From an uncultured Rickettsiales bacterium (GTDB taxonomy: Bacteria > Pseudomonadota > Alphaproteobacteria > Rickettsiales > RGZB01), in contig CAYXPR010000009.1 of NCBI GenBank assembly GCA_964467255.1, positions 15,139 to 79,138 of the forward strand: a stretch of 64,000 nucleotides of DNA. The letters run 5' to 3'. Within the stretch, counting starts at the first letter, position 1, and each line of letters begins with the position of its first letter. Below are positions 3,288 to 56,424 of the stretch, piece after piece. The notes beneath the pieces are model-generated. The model worked only from the letters and a program-made list of their open reading frames with translations. It did no database searches and was not told the origin of the DNA. Position numbers and translations under genes: made by a program.

Positions 3288-3302
3288 TTAACAAAAGGTT
3301 AA
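3288..3302 (-). promoter_or_regulatory. TTAA-N7-TTAA motif (CtrA-box type) upstream of the poly-HTH gene
   Basis: The minus-strand reading is TTAA CCTTTTG TTAA(a). It lies about 30 nt upstream of GTG 3256, or about 63 nt upstream of GTG 3223. Confidence 0.45.
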
Positions 3303-45086: not shown

Positions 45087-45134
45087 CTTTTCGTGGCAGT
45101 CTATACGCTGGAGCATTGTAACCAGCGGAATTCT

Positions 45135-46424
45135 ATGTCACTGAAGGAATTTTCAGCACAGGCGACCTTATATAAAGACGACACTGTTGCGATTGAGCAG
45201 ACGCTGCTGCTGAACGAGCGCGACGACGGCAAGTTGCATGCGCAGCGCATCACCCGCGTGAATGGCGTTGAGGCGTGGAATAACCAAGTGCTGTTCTCGG
45301 TGTTTGAGGCGGGCAAAAGCATGGACGAAGCCATGACCGACATTCAACAGCGCTGGGACGAAGTTGAGCGTGGCGAGCTGCAATTCATGTGCAAAAATGC
45401 AGTGCTATATGGCCGTGTGAAACAGATTGAACCCAGCGCCGATTATATGGCAACGCTGCTAAAAGGCACACTGATTAGTTATTACACCATGCCTGATATG
45501 ATGGCGGTGGAAAACCCCGAATATGACAGCAACGACCGCTATGCACTGGGCGTGCAGTTCCGTAGCTTCCGCCACTCTACAAATATATACCGCAACGATA
45601 ATGGAGATGGTGATGGCGCGGCGCAATTACCCATCACCGACCGGTATGAAAACGCCATGCTGCGCATTGATGGCGCGGCAGAGAATATCATGGAGTTTAT
45701 GAACGCCGATATTTGGGGCGAGTCGATTCATGCGCCCGGCACCACACATGAAGGTTCGTCCTATGATTATGAACTACAGGGCGGCGAAAAAAGAGACATG
45801 TTTGAGGAATACAAAGACCCCGGCGAGCCAGACGTGTCTCGCGTGGTGCCGCTGGAAGACGATGATATTGAAGTGGGGGATGATTTTTTCTCCGGCGGCG
45901 AAGAGGAGTATGATGAAGACAGGGGTAATGAATATGATCTTCCGGAAGTGAATAGCTGGGAACAAGAAGCACAGCGCGAAAATTCGGGCGGTGGTTATGA
46001 AGTGGGTGAACAAACACCTATGATGCGGCTGGTGCCTGAGGTGAGTGACCGCATGTTTGAATTGGTGGAGCAACTGACCAAAGCATGGGTAATGATTGCA
46101 CAGCACCAGCAAAAGGGACATTCCCTTGGCGATGAGCCGCGAGCGGCGATAGTAGAGGCACTCAATGAAGCCATCCGCGAGACGAGGGAGGCAGCTACAA
46201 AGTTTGGCGAAGCGTTGGCAGAGGAAGGAAAAGGCGAATTTGCTCCGCGTCTGAGCCAGCTGGTGGAAGAAGGTTGGCGCAACGAAGGGGGTGTAGAAGT
46301 AAAGGGCCTGCTGAAAGTAGCGGAACAGATGCGCGATATGGTGAAAACCAAACGTGCAGATACCTATATCGCGCAGGGCCGCGAAGGCCCGACCCCCGGC
46401 ACCGGTGATTTGCCGAAGTTTTAA
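45135..46424 (+). CDS. highly acidic hypothetical protein (orphan)
   Basis: ORF 45093..46424. ATG 45135 (MSLKEF..) is preferred because GTG 45093 would lie only 6 nt from the putative promoter motif. The central D/E/G-rich low-complexity tract is 'EDDDIEVGDDFFSGGEEEYDEDRGNEYD'. No motif recognised. Confidence 0.5.
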   Translation: MSLKEFSAQATLYKDDTVAIEQTLLLNERDDGKLHAQRITRVNGVEAWNNQVLFSVFEAGKSMDEAMTDIQQRWDEVERGELQFMCKNAVLYGRVKQIEPSADYMATLLKGTLISYYTMPDMMAVENPEYDSNDRYALGVQFRSFRHSTNIYRNDNGDGDGAAQLPITDRYENAMLRIDGAAENIMEFMNADIWGESIHAPGTTHEGSSYDYELQGGEKRDMFEEYKDPGEPDVSRVVPLEDDDIEVGDDFFSGGEEEYDEDRGNEYDLPEVNSWEQEAQRENSGGGYEVGEQTPMMRLVPEVSDRMFELVEQLTKAWVMIAQHQQKGHSLGDEPRAAIVEALNEAIRETREAATKFGEALAEEGKGEFAPRLSQLVEEGWRNEGGVEVKGLLKVAEQMRDMVKTKRADTYIAQGREGPTPGTGDLPKF

Positions 46425-49520: not shown

Positions 49521-50210
49521 CTAAACGTCAGAGAAACCGGAATCATCCGGATGGGTGGGTTTTTTTGATAGCAGTGCGGACGGCGCTTCCGGCTTGGCGG
49601 GCTTGGCGCCAAAACCAAAACGACCATCTTTCTGCTTGTCGCGTTTTACATTCACGCGGATGGCTTTTTCAATGTCGCCGCGGATGGCTTCGAGCGAAGG
49701 TGGCAGCACCGTGTCTTTGATGGAATGGGCAAAACCCAAGCGTGAAATAGCATCCATCGGTGCACCAAGGCCATGCGTGAATTTCATTTTTGCAGCAGTG
49801 AAATCGGCACCCACTAAACTCGTCATGTAGAGCTTCGTGTGATATAAATCCGCGCGCGAAAAATCGGCATAGTCGGCGCAGGCATGGTCGAACTGCGTGT
49901 CAGACATCACACAATCCGCGAACACAGTGTGGCGTGCGGTGACACCAGAAAAAATGACGTTCGATACATCAATGCCGCTGAAATCGAGCCCGCTGATATC
50001 CGACCCCGTAAGGTTGATGTAAGGCAGGCCGAAAGCGGCGCTGCTCTCTTTAGAAAAACTGCCATATTTGCGGAAAAGGGCGCGTAATTCAGGATTCGCC
50101 ATGTCGGCTTCGGTAAGGTCTACGCTGGTGAGGTCAATCATGCCGCCAGGGCCGAAATTACTCATGCGCAGGAGAACCTGCTTTGTGGAAAGGTGCGGCC
50201 GGCGGGGCAT
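49521..50210 (-). CDS. pentapeptide-repeat protein
   Basis: Tandem A(D/N)LxX-type repeats: 'GSDISGLDFSGIDVSNVIFSGV' and 'ADFSRADLYHTKLYMTSLVGADFTAAKM'. ORF trimmed to ATG 50210 (MPRRPHL..). Confidence 0.75.
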   Translation of the reverse strand: MPRRPHLSTKQVLLRMSNFGPGGMIDLTSVDLTEADMANPELRALFRKYGSFSKESSAAFGLPYINLTGSDISGLDFSGIDVSNVIFSGVTARHTVFADCVMSDTQFDHACADYADFSRADLYHTKLYMTSLVGADFTAAKMKFTHGLGAPMDAISRLGFAHSIKDTVLPPSLEAIRGDIEKAIRVNVKRDKQKDGRFGFGAKPAKPEAPSALLSKKPTHPDDSGFSDV

Positions 50211-50415
50211 GGTCAAACCTTCATCTCCCAAAAAACACCGCTGTTTCAATGGGCAACGGCTAAGGCTTACTATACCGCGACTTGCCGAAATTGAAAAGAA
50301 CAAGTTCTTTACACCCCGCGAGCGTAGCGGCACAATAGGTGCGACTTTCCGCTATTCCCATGCTAAAATGGGGGTATAAGTTAAGTCCGTGATAGGCAAA
50401 ACGAGCAGGTAGCGA

Positions 50416-52131
50416 ATGGAGCCAATTAACCTACCACCAGTGCAGGCCAACCTGCCGCCGATTAATAGTAATTCCGTGCCCAATGTGCGGCCGAACCCTG
50501 CGCTTGCCAGCTTGCCACCTGATGCGCTGGTGAACGCTACGGTGGTGCGCGCCGATAGCACCAGCGCCGTGCTGCGCACCCCCGCCGGTGAAGTGGCTGT
50601 GCGCACCGAAACGCCATTAAATCCCGGCAGCAGCATTGTGATAAAAATAGTGGTGAACACACTGGCTTCGCAAATCCGCCCGCCGGAAGGGCAGCCGCTA
50701 GCAAATAACCTTGTCCCATCAACCACCTTGTCGCAATTTCAGGCGCAGATTTTAACTGTGGATGGTCGTGCGCCCGTTGGCGTAGGCACCGACAGAGCAT
50801 TGGTAACAGTGACGCAGCCAAACCCACAAACAGGTACGCAGAACAGCACAGCAACAGGCACGCGTGCGGCAGTAGAACAAGGGGCAACGACCCTGAATAT
50901 TTCAAGCGGCACGGTGCTGCGCGCTGTGGTGACGGCGCCTGCGGCCACCGCGCAGCAATACCTGCCACCACCGCAGGTGACGTCGTCTGTACCATTCCTT
51001 GCACATGCGGGGCTGCAGGCCTATCAGGCCGCCACACCGAACACAAACCCAAACGCAGGTCTTGCCAACACGAGCGCAAGCAGCGTGCTGAAAGTGTCGG
51101 ATGTGCTTTCGGTGCATGTGCTGGCGGTGAGGGTCACGCCCGATGCGGCATCTACTAATCCGCAGGGGAGTTTTACCTCGGGCTTTGGTGCGCAATCGCA
51201 AAACCCGCAGCAGCAAGCGGCTACGGCGGCAAAACTTTCTGCGCAGCCCAGCTTTACCGGCACGGTGATTGGCACCGAACGCTCGGGAGAAACGGTGCTT
51301 TCCACCCCGCTCGGCACGATTAAATTGATGCTCGGTGGAGGGCTGCTTTCCAAAGGCACACAGCTGACGCTGGAAGTATTGAACATGGAAGCGCGCGCAG
51401 CGAGCACCGCACCGCTGCCGACCACGCTTGAAGAAGCGAAGGGTTTGCTGGGCAGAGGTGCAACGTCATTGTCGGAAATTGCGGGGCTGCTAGTGCAATC
51501 GCATGGCGCGGAAGGCAAGGAAGCCTTGCAGCAAGCATTGCCAAGTACACAACTGCCGCAGCAATTTGCCTCGCGTCTGTTGTGGTTTTTGGGCGGCGTA
51601 TTTTCCGGCAACGCGGCGGCGTTTGTGGGCCCTGAAGTGCAGCGCATGCTGGAGCAAAGCGGCAAAGGCGAATTGATTGGCCGTTTGCAAAAAGAATTCG
51701 GTCGCCTGAAACAAGCAGGGCAGGAAGGGCTCGGCAATGGCTGGACGGGCATGCTCTTTCCGGTGATGGATGGCGAAAAAATTGATCATGGCGCGATGTT
51801 CACCCGCCGCTTCCGTGAGGAAAATGCTGACGGAAAAACCGAAGACGGCACACGTTTTGTGGTGGATATGCGCATGTCGCAAATGGGGCCGGTGCAGCTG
51901 GATGGTTTATATCGTACGGACGGCGAGGCGAAGAAGTTTGATTTATTCGTGCGCACGAATGCACCGTTGAGCGATGAAGTGCGGACAGAAATTTTTGAAG
52001 TGTTCTCGGCCACCACGGAAGCGACTGGCCTGAATGGTTCGCTGCAATTTCAGGTGATGCGCAAATTTCCGGTGAACCCGCTGGAAATTGAAATGCCAAC
52101 CAGCGCGTCTGATGGTAACATCATCGCATGA
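50416..52131 (+). CDS. FliK-like (flagellar hook-length-control-like) protein
   Basis: 571 aa, Pro/Gln/Thr/Ala-rich. Repeated 'L.A.V......VL.T..G.....T..PL..G..L.L.V' modules, and a C-terminal segment 'TRFVVDMRMSQMGPVQLDGLYRTDGEAKKFDLFVRTN' resembling the Flg_hook domain. Assigned from memory of the family pattern only. Confidence 0.45.
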   Translation: MEPINLPPVQANLPPINSNSVPNVRPNPALASLPPDALVNATVVRADSTSAVLRTPAGEVAVRTETPLNPGSSIVIKIVVNTLASQIRPPEGQPLANNLVPSTTLSQFQAQILTVDGRAPVGVGTDRALVTVTQPNPQTGTQNSTATGTRAAVEQGATTLNISSGTVLRAVVTAPAATAQQYLPPPQVTSSVPFLAHAGLQAYQAATPNTNPNAGLANTSASSVLKVSDVLSVHVLAVRVTPDAASTNPQGSFTSGFGAQSQNPQQQAATAAKLSAQPSFTGTVIGTERSGETVLSTPLGTIKLMLGGGLLSKGTQLTLEVLNMEARAASTAPLPTTLEEAKGLLGRGATSLSEIAGLLVQSHGAEGKEALQQALPSTQLPQQFASRLLWFLGGVFSGNAAAFVGPEVQRMLEQSGKGELIGRLQKEFGRLKQAGQEGLGNGWTGMLFPVMDGEKIDHGAMFTRRFREENADGKTEDGTRFVVDMRMSQMGPVQLDGLYRTDGEAKKFDLFVRTNAPLSDEVRTEIFEVFSATTEATGLNGSLQFQVMRKFPVNPLEIEMPTSASDGNIIA

Positions 52132-52526
52132 AACACACCCCCGATGATGCCGTTAAACGCCGTGCACTGTTAAACCCAGTGCCCGCGCCCGGCAGACCCT
52201 ATGATTATGTGGTGGAGTTACGCCAGCCGCTCTTTGCCCGCACGAAAAACCCTATCACGCTGGTGGTGCGCTATGTGCCGGAAAAATTCATTCTCGCACC
52301 AGAGCGCCTGAACGCGTACCTGAAACAGAGTGAAAAAATCCCTCACGATTCCATTGAGGTGCTGGCCGACCGGATGCTAAGCGACCTGCTCAACGAACTG
52401 ATTCCGTTCTGGATAGAGATTCTGCTGGAGCAGCAGGAAGGCGAAGTGCTGCACCGCGTGCTGCGGGAAGAACGCCAGCCGGATTGGGATAATCCCTCGC
52501 TTTTAGCGCGCCTAGCGCCGCTGTAA
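52128..52526 (+). CDS. QueF-like T-fold protein lacking the catalytic cysteine
   Basis: The ATG overlaps the upstream stop (ATGA). 'ITLVVRYVPEKFILAPERLNAYL' and 'IEVLADRMLSDLLNELIPFWIEI' align by eye with B. subtilis QueF '[23 protein letters not shown]' and '[23 protein letters not shown]'. The protein has no Cys and lacks the E-S-K-S motif. Confidence 0.4.
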   Translation: MKHTPDDAVKRRALLNPVPAPGRPYDYVVELRQPLFARTKNPITLVVRYVPEKFILAPERLNAYLKQSEKIPHDSIEVLADRMLSDLLNELIPFWIEILLEQQEGEVLHRVLREERQPDWDNPSLLARLAPL

Positions 52527-52763
52527 AGCGTACAACCATCTTGTTAAGTACCCATGAAAAACAGGGAATTTTTCATTTCTCTGCCTAAAAATTATGCACA
52601 ACGGCAAACCTTCCCCTGTCAAACCCGCAGAAATGCGTGAAAGGCAAAGCGAGACAATAAAAATATTTCATTAAAAAACAAAGAGATAGATATATCTGCC
52701 CCATTTTGTGGCAAACCGTAGAAACCCGCGACGTTTTCGGCAAAATCTCCGAGGGGGACGGAG

Positions 52764-52798
52764 TTATCCACAGGCTTATCCCCGCTTTTCGTGGATAA
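52764..52798. promoter_or_regulatory. cluster of three DnaA-box-like 9-mers
   Basis: TTATCCACA (52764-52772, perfect consensus), TTATCCCCG (52776-52784, 2 mismatches) and inverted CGTGGATAA (52790-52798, equal to TTATCCACG, 1 mismatch). Further 1-mismatch boxes are TTATGCACA (52592-52600) and TTATCCGCA (52962-52970). An AT-rich tract lies at about 52655-52700. Confidence 0.4.
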
Positions 52799-52918
52799 CA
52801 GTTGGTGGCGCGCCTGAAATAAGGTAAAAATAGCGGGATTCCAAGGGGATGAACTAATCTCCCTTTGGAAGCAGGTGATAAAAAAGCAACAAACTGTTCC
52901 GAATAAAAAACACTATAG

Positions 52919-54775
52919 GTGAAAGCGATGGACAGTGCAGGGCATATGAGCGGTGCCGACATTATCCGCAAAAAAGTAGAGACACTGCCGGATGCGCCCG
53001 GCGTATATCGCATGCTGGGTGAAAAAGGCGAAGTGCTGTATGTGGGCAAAGCCGCCAATTTAAAAAAACGCGTGGCGAACTACACGCAACTGATGCGCCT
53101 AACCACCCGCCTGCAGCGCATGGTGACGCTGACGAAGGATATGGAATTTATCCTGACCCGCAGCGAGGCCGAAGCGCTTCTGCTGGAAGCCAATCTGATT
53201 AAGCAATATCAGCCGCGCTACAATATTTTGCTGAAGGACGATAAATCCTTCCCCTACATTATGCTGGATGAAACGCACGCATTTCCGCGCATCGCCAAAC
53301 ATCGCGGCGAGCGCAAAAAAGGTGCGACTTATTTTGGCCCGTATGCGAATGCGGGGGATGTAAACCGCGCCATGGCGGCGATTCAAAAAATGTTTTTACT
53401 GCGCCCATGCGCGGACACGGTTTTTTCAGCCCGCACCCGCCCATGCATGGAATATCAGATTAAGCGGTGCAGCGCGCCATGCGTGAAGCGCATCGGTGAA
53501 AAAGATTATGCCGCGTTGGTGCAGCAGGCGAAAGATTTTCTCTCAGGAAAAAATCAGGGCCTCAAAGAAAAGCTCCAGCAGGAAATGGAAACAGCGAGCG
53601 CCAAAATGCAATATGAAAAAGCCGCCAGCTTGCGCGACCGCATCGGCGCGCTGCAGCACGTGCAGGCCAACCAATATGTGAATGCGGCGACCGTGAGCGA
53701 TGCCGATGTGATTGGCCTTGCGGCAGATGCTCCACGCGTGTGCGTGCAGGTGCTGTTTATCCGCGGCGGGCAGACGATGGGCAGCCGCGCATTTTTCCCC
53801 ACGCGCACCGACGACATGACACCGCCTGAAATTATGGAAGCGTTCCTCGGGCGGTTTTATCAGCTGAGTCCGCCGCCGCCACTCGTGCTGCTATCGCACC
53901 GCCCCGAAAATAGCGAAGTGATGGAGGCGGCATTACGCCTGTTGGCAGAACGCAAGGTAACGCTCGAAGTGCCGCAGCGCAGCGAGCGCGCACAGCTGGT
54001 GGCGGGCGCCGTAGCTAATGCCGAAGAAGCCGCCCGCCGCAAAATTCAGGAAGACAGTAAGGAAAAAGAACTACTCGAAGGCGTGGCGAATCTGTTTGAA
54101 CTGGAGGCGCCGCCGCAGCGCATCGAGGTGTATGACAACAGCCATATTTCCGGCAAGCATGCGGTGGGCGGCATGATTGTAGCGACACCGGAAGGATTTA
54201 ACAAACAGGCTTACCGCCGCTTCACGGTGGAGTCGACCTCGCTGGCGGGCGGGGATGATTACGGCATGCTGCGCGAGGTGCTGCAGCGCCGCTTCTCACG
54301 CCTGAAACGCGAAGACCCCGACCGCACCAGCGCATGGCCGGACTTGGTGCTGATTGATGGCGGCGCGGGGCATTTGAAAGTGGCCACCGAAGTGCTGACG
54401 GAACTCGGTGTGAATGATGTGCCCTATGCCTGCATCGCCAAGGGCGTAGACCGCAATGCGGGGCGTGAAGTGTTCCATGTGGCAGGAAAAGAACCATTCC
54501 AATTGCCGGTGCATGATGCCACGCTGTATTACCTGCAGCGCCTGCGCGACGAAGCACACCGTTATGCGATTTTCTCGCACCGTGCGAAACGCTCGCGCGC
54601 CATCCGCAGCAGCGAACTGGATACGCTCACGGGCGTGGGTGCCACGCGCAAAAAAGCGCTGCTCACGCATTTTGGCTCAGTGCAGGCTTTGCGAAATGCC
54701 AGCGTGGAAGAGATTGGGCGCGTGCCCGGCATCAGTGTGAAACTCGCCGAATCCATTCACCAACAACTGCGCTAA
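52919..54775 (+). CDS. uvrC: excinuclease ABC subunit C
   Basis: GIY-YIG 'PGVYRMLGEKGEVLYVGKAANLKKRV', a UVR domain 'YEKAASLRDRIGAL', and C-terminal HhH 'LTGVGATRKKALLTHFGS'. The start may be ATG 52928 or 52946. Confidence 0.95.
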   Translation: MKAMDSAGHMSGADIIRKKVETLPDAPGVYRMLGEKGEVLYVGKAANLKKRVANYTQLMRLTTRLQRMVTLTKDMEFILTRSEAEALLLEANLIKQYQPRYNILLKDDKSFPYIMLDETHAFPRIAKHRGERKKGATYFGPYANAGDVNRAMAAIQKMFLLRPCADTVFSARTRPCMEYQIKRCSAPCVKRIGEKDYAALVQQAKDFLSGKNQGLKEKLQQEMETASAKMQYEKAASLRDRIGALQHVQANQYVNAATVSDADVIGLAADAPRVCVQVLFIRGGQTMGSRAFFPTRTDDMTPPEIMEAFLGRFYQLSPPPPLVLLSHRPENSEVMEAALRLLAERKVTLEVPQRSERAQLVAGAVANAEEAARRKIQEDSKEKELLEGVANLFELEAPPQRIEVYDNSHISGKHAVGGMIVATPEGFNKQAYRRFTVESTSLAGGDDYGMLREVLQRRFSRLKREDPDRTSAWPDLVLIDGGAGHLKVATEVLTELGVNDVPYACIAKGVDRNAGREVFHVAGKEPFQLPVHDATLYYLQRLRDEAHRYAIFSHRAKRSRAIRSSELDTLTGVGATRKKALLTHFGSVQALRNASVEEIGRVPGISVKLAESIHQQLR

Positions 54776-54861
54776 AGCGGCGTACCGCCTTAAACGGCGC
54801 TTGACGATGCGCCACTTTCACGACATTTTAGAAAGCAATCACCAAACCCAGCGCCGCCCGT

Positions 54862-55404
54862 ATGATATATTCACTGCCGAACATTTTGACCTATGTACGT
54901 ATCGCGCTGATTCCGGTGGTGGTGGCGGCATTTTATATGGATGGCCGCACGAGCCATCTCGTCGCTTCCGGCCTTTTTTTAGTGGCAAGTATTACCGATT
55001 ATTTAGATGGCTGGCTCGCCCGCTTGTGGCAGCAGGAATCGTCCCTCGGGCGCTTTTTGGACCCGATTGCGGACAAACTGCTCGTCGCCGCGGCGTTGAT
55101 GATGCTGGTGGATTTTGAACGCGCGGACGTGATTCCCGCTACTTTGATTTTGTGCCGCGAAATTATGGTCTCTGGCCTGCGTGAATTCTTGGCAGAAATT
55201 AAGGTGAGCGTGCCGGTGAGCCGCCTTGCCAAAGTGAAAACTGGCGTGCAGATGACGGCTATATTCTTGTTGCTGTTGGGTGCGAAAGGTAGCGGGTTTG
55301 TGATTGTAGAAACGCTGGGCAGCATCGCGCTGTGGATTGCCGCCGTGCTGACGGTGGCCACGGGCTATGCGTATTTAAAGGCCGGCGTCGCCCACATGAA
55401 ATAG
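54862..55404 (+). CDS. pgsA: CDP-diacylglycerol--glycerol-3-phosphate 3-phosphatidyltransferase
   Basis: CDP-alcohol phosphatidyltransferase motif 'DYLDGWLARLWQQESSLGRFLDPIADK'. 180 aa, follows uvrC as in many proteobacteria. Confidence 0.9.
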   Translation: MIYSLPNILTYVRIALIPVVVAAFYMDGRTSHLVASGLFLVASITDYLDGWLARLWQQESSLGRFLDPIADKLLVAAALMMLVDFERADVIPATLILCREIMVSGLREFLAEIKVSVPVSRLAKVKTGVQMTAIFLLLLGAKGSGFVIVETLGSIALWIAAVLTVATGYAYLKAGVAHMK

Positions 55405-55407
55405 CGC

Positions 55408-56424
55408 TTAGCGCTTCCAGATATCCTCGGCACCGCTTCCGAGCCCGCCCCGCAGGTCGGTGCGCGGCGTATGTTTTTTAGGTTCACGCGCCGGTTTTTC
55501 TTCTTTTGCCAAGGCCAGCGGCGGACTTCCCTTATGGTGCCACGGCGGCTGTGTACTAAGTTCTTTCGCGACCTCTGGTGTGACGAACACCTCGCGCTTG
55601 GGGAGCCACTCTGCAATCATTGCATCGAGCGATTCGATGCCGCTGTTTTCCACAGGGCGCGTGTAGGCGGTCATGACGGCACGTTCACGGCGCATTTTGA
55701 CGCGGTCAATCTGGTCATTCAGCTGGCTTGTATAATCCCTGAAATTTTCTAAGACGGCACCCGGCGTGGTTGTTTCTTTAAAGCCAATATGTGGCAAAAC
55801 ATCATTGCGGTGCAGCGCCTGAAACAGGCACATGAGATTGCCAGCGGCAAGCTTCGCACCACTGGCATCAAAACCAAACATTGCTTCGCGGGAATCGCGG
55901 TCTTCGGTGATCAGCACGCTGCCACCCTGCCCGGCATTTTGCTGCGCCGCTTTTCGGGTGAGCCCGTCGACATCTTTACTTTTGCGGAGCGCATCAAATT
56001 CAACAAAGCTGCGCGTGCGGTGCCCTCTGTCACTCAGCTCCTCCAGTTTTGAAAGTAACGCGACGCCTTCTTCGCTCTGCATCACGCGCACATTCGGCAA
56101 GCCCCCCGCAAGGGCGATGGCACCTAAATTGCGGGCGATTTGCCCTTGGTGGTAAATCACCGAGCGTTTTTCATCTAAGAACATGCGGTCAACCACATTA
56201 CCGGTTAGCGGGTTATGACCACTGGTTTCATAAATGACACTGGCGGGTAGGCCAATTTGTAAAAACCCCTGACGTGCTGCATCCACGATAGGGTCGATAT
56301 AGAGTTTTTTGGTGTTGCCATCTGCCAGCAGCGCAGGGCGCACCGGTGTGAACAAATGTTTGAGCGCGCAGCTGTCGATAACGGCCAGCGGGGCGTCTTG
56401 AAATAATGTCGGCGAAATAGCCAT
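55408..56424 (-). CDS. hypothetical soluble protein (orphan), with a possible PIN-like N-terminal domain
   Basis: 338 aa. GAGGAG Shine-Dalgarno. 'LAVIDSCAL' and 'VLITEDRD' are reminiscent of PIN-domain acidic motifs (weak). Basic/Pro-rich C-terminus. A TTAA-N7-TTAAC motif lies 35 nt upstream. Confidence 0.55.
   Translation of the reverse strand: MAISPTLFQDAPLAVIDSCALKHLFTPVRPALLADGNTKKLYIDPIVDAARQGFLQIGLPASVIYETSGHNPLTGNVVDRMFLDEKRSVIYHQGQIARNLGAIALAGGLPNVRVMQSEEGVALLSKLEELSDRGHRTRSFVEFDALRKSKDVDGLTRKAAQQNAGQGGSVLITEDRDSREAMFGFDASGAKLAAGNLMCLFQALHRNDVLPHIGFKETTTPGAVLENFRDYTSQLNDQIDRVKMRRERAVMTAYTRPVENSGIESLDAMIAEWLPKREVFVTPEVAKELSTQPPWHHKGSPPLALAKEEKPAREPKKHTPRTDLRGGLGSGAEDIWKR

Follow-up and report, generated by a model that had tools for sequence, protein, structure and literature searches.

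The 64,000-nucleotide stretch of DNA analysed here (hereafter the window), taken from contig CAYXPR010000009.1 of an uncultured bacterium assigned to the Rickettsiales, contains two genes that lie end to end on the forward strand: a large gene, encoding a protein of 571 amino acids (aa), and a small gene, encoding one of 132 aa. A first-pass annotation of this DNA had noted that the stop codon of the former overlaps the start codon of the latter in the sequence ATGA, and that a pentapeptide-repeat gene is transcribed divergently from the same 205-bp region. Both readings proved correct, the second through a match to the family PF00805, and the elements of the locus are as follows.

49521..50210, minus strand: pentapeptide-repeat gene, divergent from the pair (PF00805, E=5.3e-15; PF13599, E=1e-8)
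50211..50415, no strand assigned: divergent intergenic region of 205 bp between the pentapeptide-repeat gene and the large gene
50416..52131, plus strand: large gene, 571 aa, ATG start; an open reading frame (ORF) with homologues, member of an uncurated family that usually follows flhF-flhG
52128..52131, plus strand: ATGA stop/start overlap of 4 nt, indicating translational coupling from the large to the small gene
52128..52526, plus strand: small gene, 132 aa, ATG start; an ORF encoding a cysteine-less QueF-like T-fold protein

The ATG of the pentapeptide-repeat gene was placed at 50210, the start that gene callers chose in L002, a nearly identical contig, and a Pfam search showed that tandem A(D/N)LXX pentapeptide repeats are present in its product. 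When the window was compared with L002, a metagenomic contig approximately 95% identical to it, the ratio of nonsynonymous to synonymous substitution rates (dN/dS) came to 0.063 in the large and 0.059 in the small gene, values comparable with those of uvrC at 0.038 and pgsA at 0.031. Both genes of the pair are under strong purifying selection, and because their dN/dS is low and each belongs to a conserved family, we regard both ORFs as real genes. In the same comparison, the synonymous substitution rate (dS) of the large gene (0.16; window positions 50416-52128) was about threefold lower than those of the small gene, uvrC and pgsA (0.5-0.7; positions 52128-55401), a difference that a recent recombination event or nucleotide-level constraint could have caused.

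Is this pairing peculiar to the locus, as it had appeared at first pass? We scanned one genome per species from the Genome Taxonomy Database (GTDB) with a motif of the small family, [EQ][DE]R[QR]PxW[DR]N[PED], which matched 148 species, and kept 80 loci, almost all of them from Rhodospirillales-type alphaproteobacteria. The hosts of the pair, some 150 species described as spiral-shaped alphaproteobacteria, include many Azospirillum, Magnetovibrio blakemorei MV-1, Terasakiella brassicae, Hwanghaeella, Caenispirillum bisanense, Thalassospiraceae and numerous metagenome-assembled genomes (MAGs). In 73 of the 78 assessable loci, a hidden Markov model (HMM) search of six-frame ORFs located a large-family gene that directly precedes the small gene and shares its strand. 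The first-pass annotation had proposed that conservation of the pair be checked across alphaproteobacterial genomes; the two genes are adjacent there in the great majority of cases, and the pairing is not peculiar to this locus. The identical 4-nt overlap recurs in 19 of 62 homologous pairs, and in approximately 55 of the 62 the genes overlap or are separated by a gap of at most 20 nt. The pair is conserved, co-oriented and usually translationally coupled.

The usual home of this widespread, conserved module is the flhA-flhF-flhG operon. In the conserved gene order, fliF, a fliH-like gene, fliN, motA, a gene for a sigma-54 activator, flhA, flhF and flhG are followed by the large gene and the small gene, and then by the convergent fliJ-fliI and a gene for an OmpR-type regulator; fliF/fliG stand at the head of the usual order in the polar-flagellum cluster. 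The flhA-flhF-flhG-large-small arrangement, convergent with fliJ-fliI, was found in about 60 of the 80 loci. Neighbouring genes were grouped by all-against-all clustering and named by Pfam matches in the Terasakiella locus L029 and by RefSeq annotation in Azospirillum lipoferum 4B, and the resulting FlhG, FliJ, FliI, FlhA and FlhF clusters were represented in 52-61 loci (FlhG, FliJ and FliI in about 60 each). The pair of A. lipoferum 4B itself, WP_014188891.1 (615 aa) and WP_014188890.1 (117 aa), with the locus tags AZOLI_RS19710 and AZOLI_RS19705, shows the 4-nt overlap, and both of its members are annotated as 'hypothetical protein'. Independent metagenome contigs agree with this flagellar context: the homologues P0007 and P0008 directly follow flhF (SRP54) and flhG (ParA) and lie close to fliJ, and P0017, P0018 and P0019 adjoin flhG, fliJ and fliI. 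A flagellar connection of the 571-aa protein had been suspected at first pass, and that intuition was right, because the family to which it belongs lives inside the flagellar gene clusters of other genomes. No other que genes were found among the conserved neighbours of the pair, and no canonical fliK was detected near it when a FliK-core HMM was run against all ORFs of 91 loci (E<=10).

The window holds a relocated copy of this module, one that has left the flagellar cluster. The statement of the first-pass annotation that no flagellar gene lies within the 64 kb was borne out by tblastn: eleven flagellar proteins from related loci (including FliF, FliH, FliN, MotA, FlbD, FlhA, FlhF, FlhG, FliI and FliJ) yielded solely a weak match of the MotA/TolQ family and an OmpR-type response regulator. 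The genes around the pair are housekeeping genes, namely folD, EamA transporters, a ComF-like gene, a nitrilase-family gene, uvrC, pgsA, a branched-chain aminotransferase gene, the OmpR-type regulator and purL.

What kind of protein does the small gene encode? The block-by-block alignment with QueF proposed at first pass now has statistical support. A profile built from five small-family sequences matched Bacillus subtilis QueF (4FGC/4F8B) with E=5e-4 over 85 residues, and QueF-L weakly (E=0.044). At E<=0.01, PF14489 was matched by 43 of 54 small-family members (best E=7.5e-7) and TIGR03139 by 51 of 54 (best E=7.8e-9), in both cases below the curated cutoff; the window protein itself scored 17.2 bits against the 27.3 cutoff of PF14489 and 18.6 bits against the equivalog cutoff of 86.9 of TIGR03139. 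In the AlphaFold2 (AF2) model, which has a predicted local distance difference test score (pLDDT) of 82.9, the core is a beta-beta-alpha-alpha-beta-beta T-fold, and the top Foldseek matches of this model are QueF (4FGC/4F8B; E ~1e-4, template modelling (TM) score 0.6), QueF-L (5JYX) and FolE (GTP cyclohydrolase I). Profile matches and predicted structure together identify the small protein as a genuine QueF-like T-fold homologue. An exhaustive HMMER search found 527 representatives of the small family at 50% identity, 401 of them at E<=1e-10 and nearly all 120-165 aa long; the family is thus sizeable, has no curated model, and is acidic (median isoelectric point 5.2).

The features required for QueF catalysis were then compared with those of the small family. 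First, Cys55 and Asp62 of B. subtilis QueF lie on a loop that aligns with the small-family profile as insertions specific to QueF, so that the loop is deleted in the small family. Second, the 132-aa protein contains no cysteine, as had been read directly from its sequence, and the alignment of 80 family members contains no conserved Cys column (none with five or more Cys). Third, the NADPH-binding motif of QueF, E-[SL]-K-[SA]-h-K-[LY]-[YFW], is not conserved in the family: the aligned segment of the window protein is I-L-A-P-E-R-L-N-A-Y, and the family retains just the final Tyr and one Leu, in agreement with the earlier remark that E-S-K-S is lacking. Judged by these alignments, QueF or QueF-L chemistry is excluded. 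The positions that are invariant or nearly so in the small family are R11/R12, D26-Y27, Y49-x-P51-D52, Y64, E77, D86 and R94-W95, together with a family-specific invariant C-terminal motif, E114-D-R-Q-P-x-W-D-N-P-x-L-L. E77, invariant in 54 sequences and 99% conserved in 80, aligns with Glu97 in the H-E-D-C segment of B. subtilis QueF, which we take to be the anchor of the substrate ring in QueF/T-fold enzymes. The first-pass description of the protein as catalytically dead is reasonable where QueF chemistry is meant; as a description of the whole protein it may be too strong, because the invariance of E77 suggests that a binding pocket, and with it ligand binding, may survive.

The window protein keeps 29 of the 33 strongly conserved positions of the small family. 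The four departures from the consensus, R94F, G33Q, D52E and D115E, are shared with a 94%-identical relative, P0001. Position 94 is Arg in 99% of the family and also in B. subtilis QueF (P-R-Y); such substitutions may reflect a change of function in the clade whose pair has left the flagellar cluster.

The large protein could be divided as follows, with coordinates on the plus strand of the window.

50512..50667, plus strand: beta module 1, aa 33-84 (beta strands in the AF2 model, pLDDT 74-83)
50761..51243, plus strand: disordered spacer rich in Ala, Thr, Gln and Pro, aa 116-276 (pLDDT <50 over aa 122-275)
51244..51387, plus strand: beta module 2, aa 277-324 (AF2 model and hhalign repeat)
51427..51723, plus strand: conserved helical domain, aa 338-436 (AF2 helices, pLDDT ~70-83; conserved alignment columns)
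51742..52056, plus strand: C-terminal domain of a beta sheet plus helix, aa 443-547, the most conserved part (pLDDT ~80-85)

Modules 1 and 2 are a duplication of approximately 46 aa (hhalign probability 98.5%, E=2.2e-15). The spacer, rich in Ala, Pro, Gly and Thr across the family, varies from 108 to 427 aa among 59 members, and W443, R480, Q494 and D509 of the C-terminal domain are invariant. The window protein retains all invariant positions of the family and is its most divergent member, with a median identity of 28% against 34%. Neither it nor any of the 59 members matched a Pfam or NCBIfam family, and no polar-targeting, membrane or nucleotide-binding domain was recognisable in those searches. 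The sole high-probability Foldseek match of the C-terminal domain was 5CUK, the T3S4 (substrate-specificity-switch) domain of PscP, the injectisome ruler of Pseudomonas, with a probability of 0.99, E=0.089, 68 aligned columns, a root-mean-square deviation of 3.5 and a TM score of 0.48 on the target; no match was found at E<1e-3. On the predicted structure, the large protein has the build of type III rulers and ends in a domain that may adopt the T3S4 fold, which is a resemblance rather than a demonstrated homology.

The distribution of canonical FliK in Azospirillum is relevant to this resemblance. The chromids carry an annotated canonical FliK in the lateral-flagellum cluster, adjoining flgD, and tblastn with the C-terminus of Azospirillum FliK found exactly one locus per genome, never on the replicon of the pair. 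In A. ramasamyi, the lateral cluster has a standard fliK-flgD and a 414-aa FlgE and lies on another replicon; no fliK or flgD was found beside the polar-type hook locus of this species (locus L102). The latter locus (NZ_CP029830.1; L102 13986-20179) was seen to comprise genes for an FlgE-like protein of unusual length (869 aa) and a 683-aa 'hypothetical protein', together with flgK. A single canonical FliK, restricted to the lateral system, fits the presence of a non-canonical length or switch factor in the polar system. It is no proof of one, because the search covered the chromids and the main chromosomes lay outside the searched collection.

How might the pair act? We consider it most likely that the pair is an accessory module, so far uncharacterised, of the polar flagellum of Rhodospirillales type. 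The large and small proteins would be made together through translational coupling and would form a complex, which could sit where the flagellar type III export gate faces the cytoplasm. There, the large protein would serve as a spacer or ruler-type factor, with its C-terminal domain in a T3S4-like role of switching or docking; in the polar flagellum it would be the functional analogue of FliK/YscP without being their detectable homologue. Its partner, the small protein, would be non-catalytic and would act as chaperone, adaptor or ligand-sensing subunit; this protein is a QueF-derived T-fold that has lost the Cys/Asp loop and the NADPH motif, has kept E77 and has gained the C-terminal motif. 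In the lineage of the window, the pair would have left the flagellar cluster and gained its own promoter region, shared with the pentapeptide-repeat gene. This proposal, a relocated flagellar module with a ruler-type switch factor and a non-catalytic partner, is tentative, and we would place its probability slightly below an even chance.

Several observations weigh against this proposal. First, the flagellar genes are absent from the 64 kb around the window copy. Second, the two genes do not always occur together: the small gene was found without the large gene in loci L067, L035 and L052 and in Caenispirillum salinarum, and the large gene without an adjacent small gene in L004-L006 and L009-L011. 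Third, the sequence of the large protein gives no sign of FliK ancestry. The first-pass annotation had seen a Flg_hook/FliK resemblance in its C-terminal part; PF02120 (Flg_hook) was matched by none of the 59 family members even at E<=1, nor by the window protein, and E. coli FliK, as a positive control, scored 75.7 bits (E=2.6e-21). For hhalign we used a FliK C-terminal alignment of eight gamma/betaproteobacterial sequences plus one from Azospirillum, with sources including E. coli, Salmonella, Proteus, Cupriavidus, Pseudomonas, Aeromonas, Ralstonia and Azospirillum. The C-terminus of the large family matched the gamma/beta FliK profile with a probability of 0.2% (E=0.28) and A. ramasamyi FliK alone with 6.1% (P=0.006), against 92.8% (E=3.9e-7) for the positive control, Azospirillum FliK versus the gamma/beta profile, and 0.1% for the negative control, the small family versus the FliK profile. 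Membership of the large protein in FliK/Flg_hook is not supported by these Pfam and hhalign results. Large-family profiles likewise matched nothing among the sequences of the Protein Data Bank (PDB) even at E<=10, and the structural match to 5CUK is weak, with its E=0.089 over just 68 residues of a simple fold. Fourth, the search for a second FliK in Azospirillum covered the chromids. Fifth, one homologue, P0114, ends in a T-fold; if that protein is real, a folded, probably oligomeric C-terminal T-fold argues against type III export.

P0114 (816 aa; L104/L105 8001-10451) is a fusion of the large architecture to the T-fold domain, inside a flagellar cluster. Its junction has about 25 extra residues and is in frame, with no homopolymer run. 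The contigs that encode it also carry a split flhA and split genes for a sigma-54 activator, and assembly error or real gene decay are possible explanations. With flhA and a further gene split in this assembly, the fusion is weak evidence of physical association, and its initial standing as strong Rosetta-stone evidence was downgraded for that reason.

The loci with a small gene alone differ among themselves. At L067 (3304-4615), a MAG, flhA-flhF-flhG are followed directly by the small gene and then by fliJ-fliI, with no large gene between them; the small gene can therefore stay in a flagellar cluster without its usual partner. At L035 and L052, it follows unrelated membrane-protein genes. In C. 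salinarum (CP085224.1; L001 1900-9726), it comes after an apparent rRNA operon beside an IS66 element and precedes a gene for a 436-aa DnaJ/zinc-ribbon/SH3_3 protein, and the same order of small gene and DnaJ gene is seen in L007 (74% identity). The DnaJ-SH3 gene was considered as a conserved third partner and rejected, as it is restricted to Caenispirillum. C. bisanense (L019) keeps a normal large and small pair.

We weighed an alternative in which the large protein is not exported and forms a cytoplasmic scaffold, a landmark or adaptor that works with FlhF/FlhG to fix the place and number of polar flagella, the T-fold partner being a tuning sensor of a purine-, pterin- or 7-deazaguanine-like ligand. 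The pair follows flhF-flhG, frequently with start and stop codons that overlap, and occurs in genomes that have the FlhF/FlhG system, both in keeping with such a role, as are the undetectable FliK homology of the large protein and the invariance of E77, D26, D86 and R12 across the small family, which hints at a pocket that has been kept. A folded T-fold fused to the C-terminus, as in P0114, is also easier to square with a cytoplasmic protein. The large protein, however, shows no recognisable polar-targeting, membrane or nucleotide-binding domain, its T3S4-like structural match and variable Pro-rich spacer fit a ruler better, and the window copy persists with no flhF/flhG nearby. We regard this alternative, the main rival of our proposal, as unlikely, though one that deserves appreciable weight.

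A second alternative starts from the window itself: the large protein, alone or with its partner, may have been co-opted in the lineage of the window and in that of L004 for a non-flagellar role with the pentapeptide-repeat protein, possibly in a host that no longer builds flagella. It would account for the absence of flagellar genes from the 64 kb and for the divergent pentapeptide-large arrangement, which recurs in L004 with large proteins 34-38% identical and is absent from all loci of flagellar context; the window large protein is moreover the most divergent of its family, the small protein has R94F where 99% of its family have Arg, and purifying selection on the pair persists. Against it, 64 kb covers little of a genome, and it is common for flagellar genes to be dispersed, over five clusters in Rhodospirillum centenum (PMC2890560) and over several replicons in Azospirillum. 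The window proteins, too, have kept 29 of 33 conserved small-protein positions and all invariant large-protein positions; and because L004 has no small gene after the large gene, the two loci are not strictly equivalent. Co-option thus appears rather improbable to us.

We further speculate that the T-fold keeps a pocket of purine, pterin or 7-deazaguanine type with the invariant Glu, Asp and Arg, senses a small molecule and, with the ruler-like protein, gates assembly of the polar flagellum, either at hook completion or at FlhF/FlhG-dependent initiation, in a module that also works away from the flagellar cluster; this would be a long shot. That the small protein is instead an active 7-deazaguanine/queuosine enzyme, a variant of QueF or QueF-L that adjoins the large gene incidentally, is almost certainly wrong, since its clear QueF homology and the retention of E77 opposite Glu97 are outweighed by the deleted Cys55/Asp62 loop, the cysteine-free window protein and missing conserved Cys column, the loss of the E-S-K-S-h-K motif, a score of 18.6 bits against the equivalog cutoff of 86.9, the adjacency to the large gene in 73 of 78 loci, and the absence of que genes from the conserved neighbours.

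In the clade of the window, the closest genome is L012 (JBIKVZ010000001.1), a MAG from Lake Mendota labelled 'Rickettsiales bacterium', whose small protein is 93% identical to that of the window; a scan of metagenomes for further members of this clade gave no confirmed match. The G+C content of the window is 51-57%, and both gene families have their other members in genomes of Rhodospirillales type; the label of L012 may be loose. Linkage to a pentapeptide-repeat gene was found in none of the 80 reference loci except L012, the close relative of the window. The pentapeptide-repeat gene was accordingly rejected as a general part of the module, being linked just in this clade and in L004, whose large protein is 34% identical to that encoded in the window.

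Because the pair has been relocated, the 205-bp region must supply its promoter. This region contains one sigma-70-like match per strand, TTTACA-17-CACAAT at 50308-50336 (plus strand) and TTTTCA-17-TATAGT (minus strand); such matches are not above chance, and no convincing promoter was found within the region, nor any CtrA-type box, TTAA-N7-TTAA. Over the whole window, TTAA-N7-TTAA occurs five times (positions 3288, 3363, 41423, 45071 and 56461) against 0.64 expected, a count reached in none of 100 shuffles. One of these sites lies 22 bp upstream of an ORF for an acidic protein of 443 aa (45093..46424, plus strand) and another 37 bp upstream of a 338-aa ORF (55408..56424, minus strand), neither of which has a Pfam match.

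Flagellar clusters are among the best-annotated loci of bacteria, yet two conserved genes of the flhA-flhF-flhG operon remain 'hypothetical'. Neither family has an entry in Pfam or NCBIfam or a name in RefSeq. Our literature searches (QueF or T-fold proteins and flagella; T3S4 in alphaproteobacteria; flhF/flhG in Azospirillum, Magnetospirillum and R. centenum) found nothing on the two genes, nor did the searchable literature yield any account of a T-fold protein that is a conserved component of flagellar clusters. The R. centenum genome paper, which describes the spread of flagellar genes over five clusters, merely draws 'uncharacterized genes' inside them (PMC2890560). If the large protein is the polar length or switch factor of the Rhodospirillales, a gap would be filled, because the Azospirillum chromids show canonical FliK in the lateral system only. 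Ligand binding by the T-fold partner, if it occurs, would bring a new regulatory input to flagellar assembly, and if the sensing hypothesis is true, a new class of flagellar checkpoint would link nucleotide or cofactor metabolism to motility. The copy in the window, off the flagellar cluster yet under selection, can be regarded as a natural experiment on the module working alone, and the question is directly testable in Azospirillum, which is genetically tractable.

How does the pair compare with known systems? It resembles type III rulers and QueF T-folds, yet fails the defining membership features of each. The small protein is comparable with the type III export chaperones (FliS, FliT, FlgN and the class I chaperones of injectisomes) in being a protein of about 130 aa, acidic and cytoplasmic, whose gene is coupled to that of a putative partner in a type III cluster. 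Its T-fold, in contrast to the helical bundle or the class I alpha/beta fold of those chaperones, makes this an analogy only.

With the unimodular QueF of B. subtilis (YkvM; 4F8B/4FGC), the small family shares the T-fold core and, along it, the D-Y of strand 1, the Y-[VI]-P-D of strand 2, the L-x-x-Y-L of helix 1, the Glu that starts helix 2, and D-L-x-x-E-L-x-P-R-[WY]. It differs in lacking the Cys55/Asp62 loop and a conserved NADPH motif, and in the window protein any cysteine, and it adds an N-terminal R-R-x-L-L helix and the C-terminal E-D-R-Q-P-x-W-D-N-P-x-L-L; the context of its genes is flagellar, not that of queuosine biosynthesis. QueF-L (5JYX/5K0P) is closer in being a short, single-domain T-fold, a relative of QueF with no NADPH-binding motif. 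QueF-L keeps the catalytic Cys and forms a thioimide, in line with the thioimide-intermediate title of 5JYX. The small family has no catalytic Cys, and is alphaproteobacterial and linked to the flagellum, whereas QueF-L is archaeal and acts on tRNA.

The large protein bears a likeness to FliK, YscP and PscP in three respects. First, a folded or semi-folded N-terminal part is followed by a long, disordered and variable spacer rich in Pro, Ala and Gln, and by a compact C-terminal domain. Second, the order of elements in that domain is beta-beta-beta-alpha-beta. Third, in the family, as opposed to the window copy, the gene is embedded among the export-apparatus genes flhA, fliI and fliJ. The large family nevertheless has no detectable sequence homology to these rulers, and possesses a duplicated 46-aa beta module and a helical domain of approximately 100 aa ahead of the C-terminal domain. 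Its gene, in contrast to fliK, comes after flhG, and not after fliJ or beside flgD, and it is accompanied by a dedicated T-fold partner gene.

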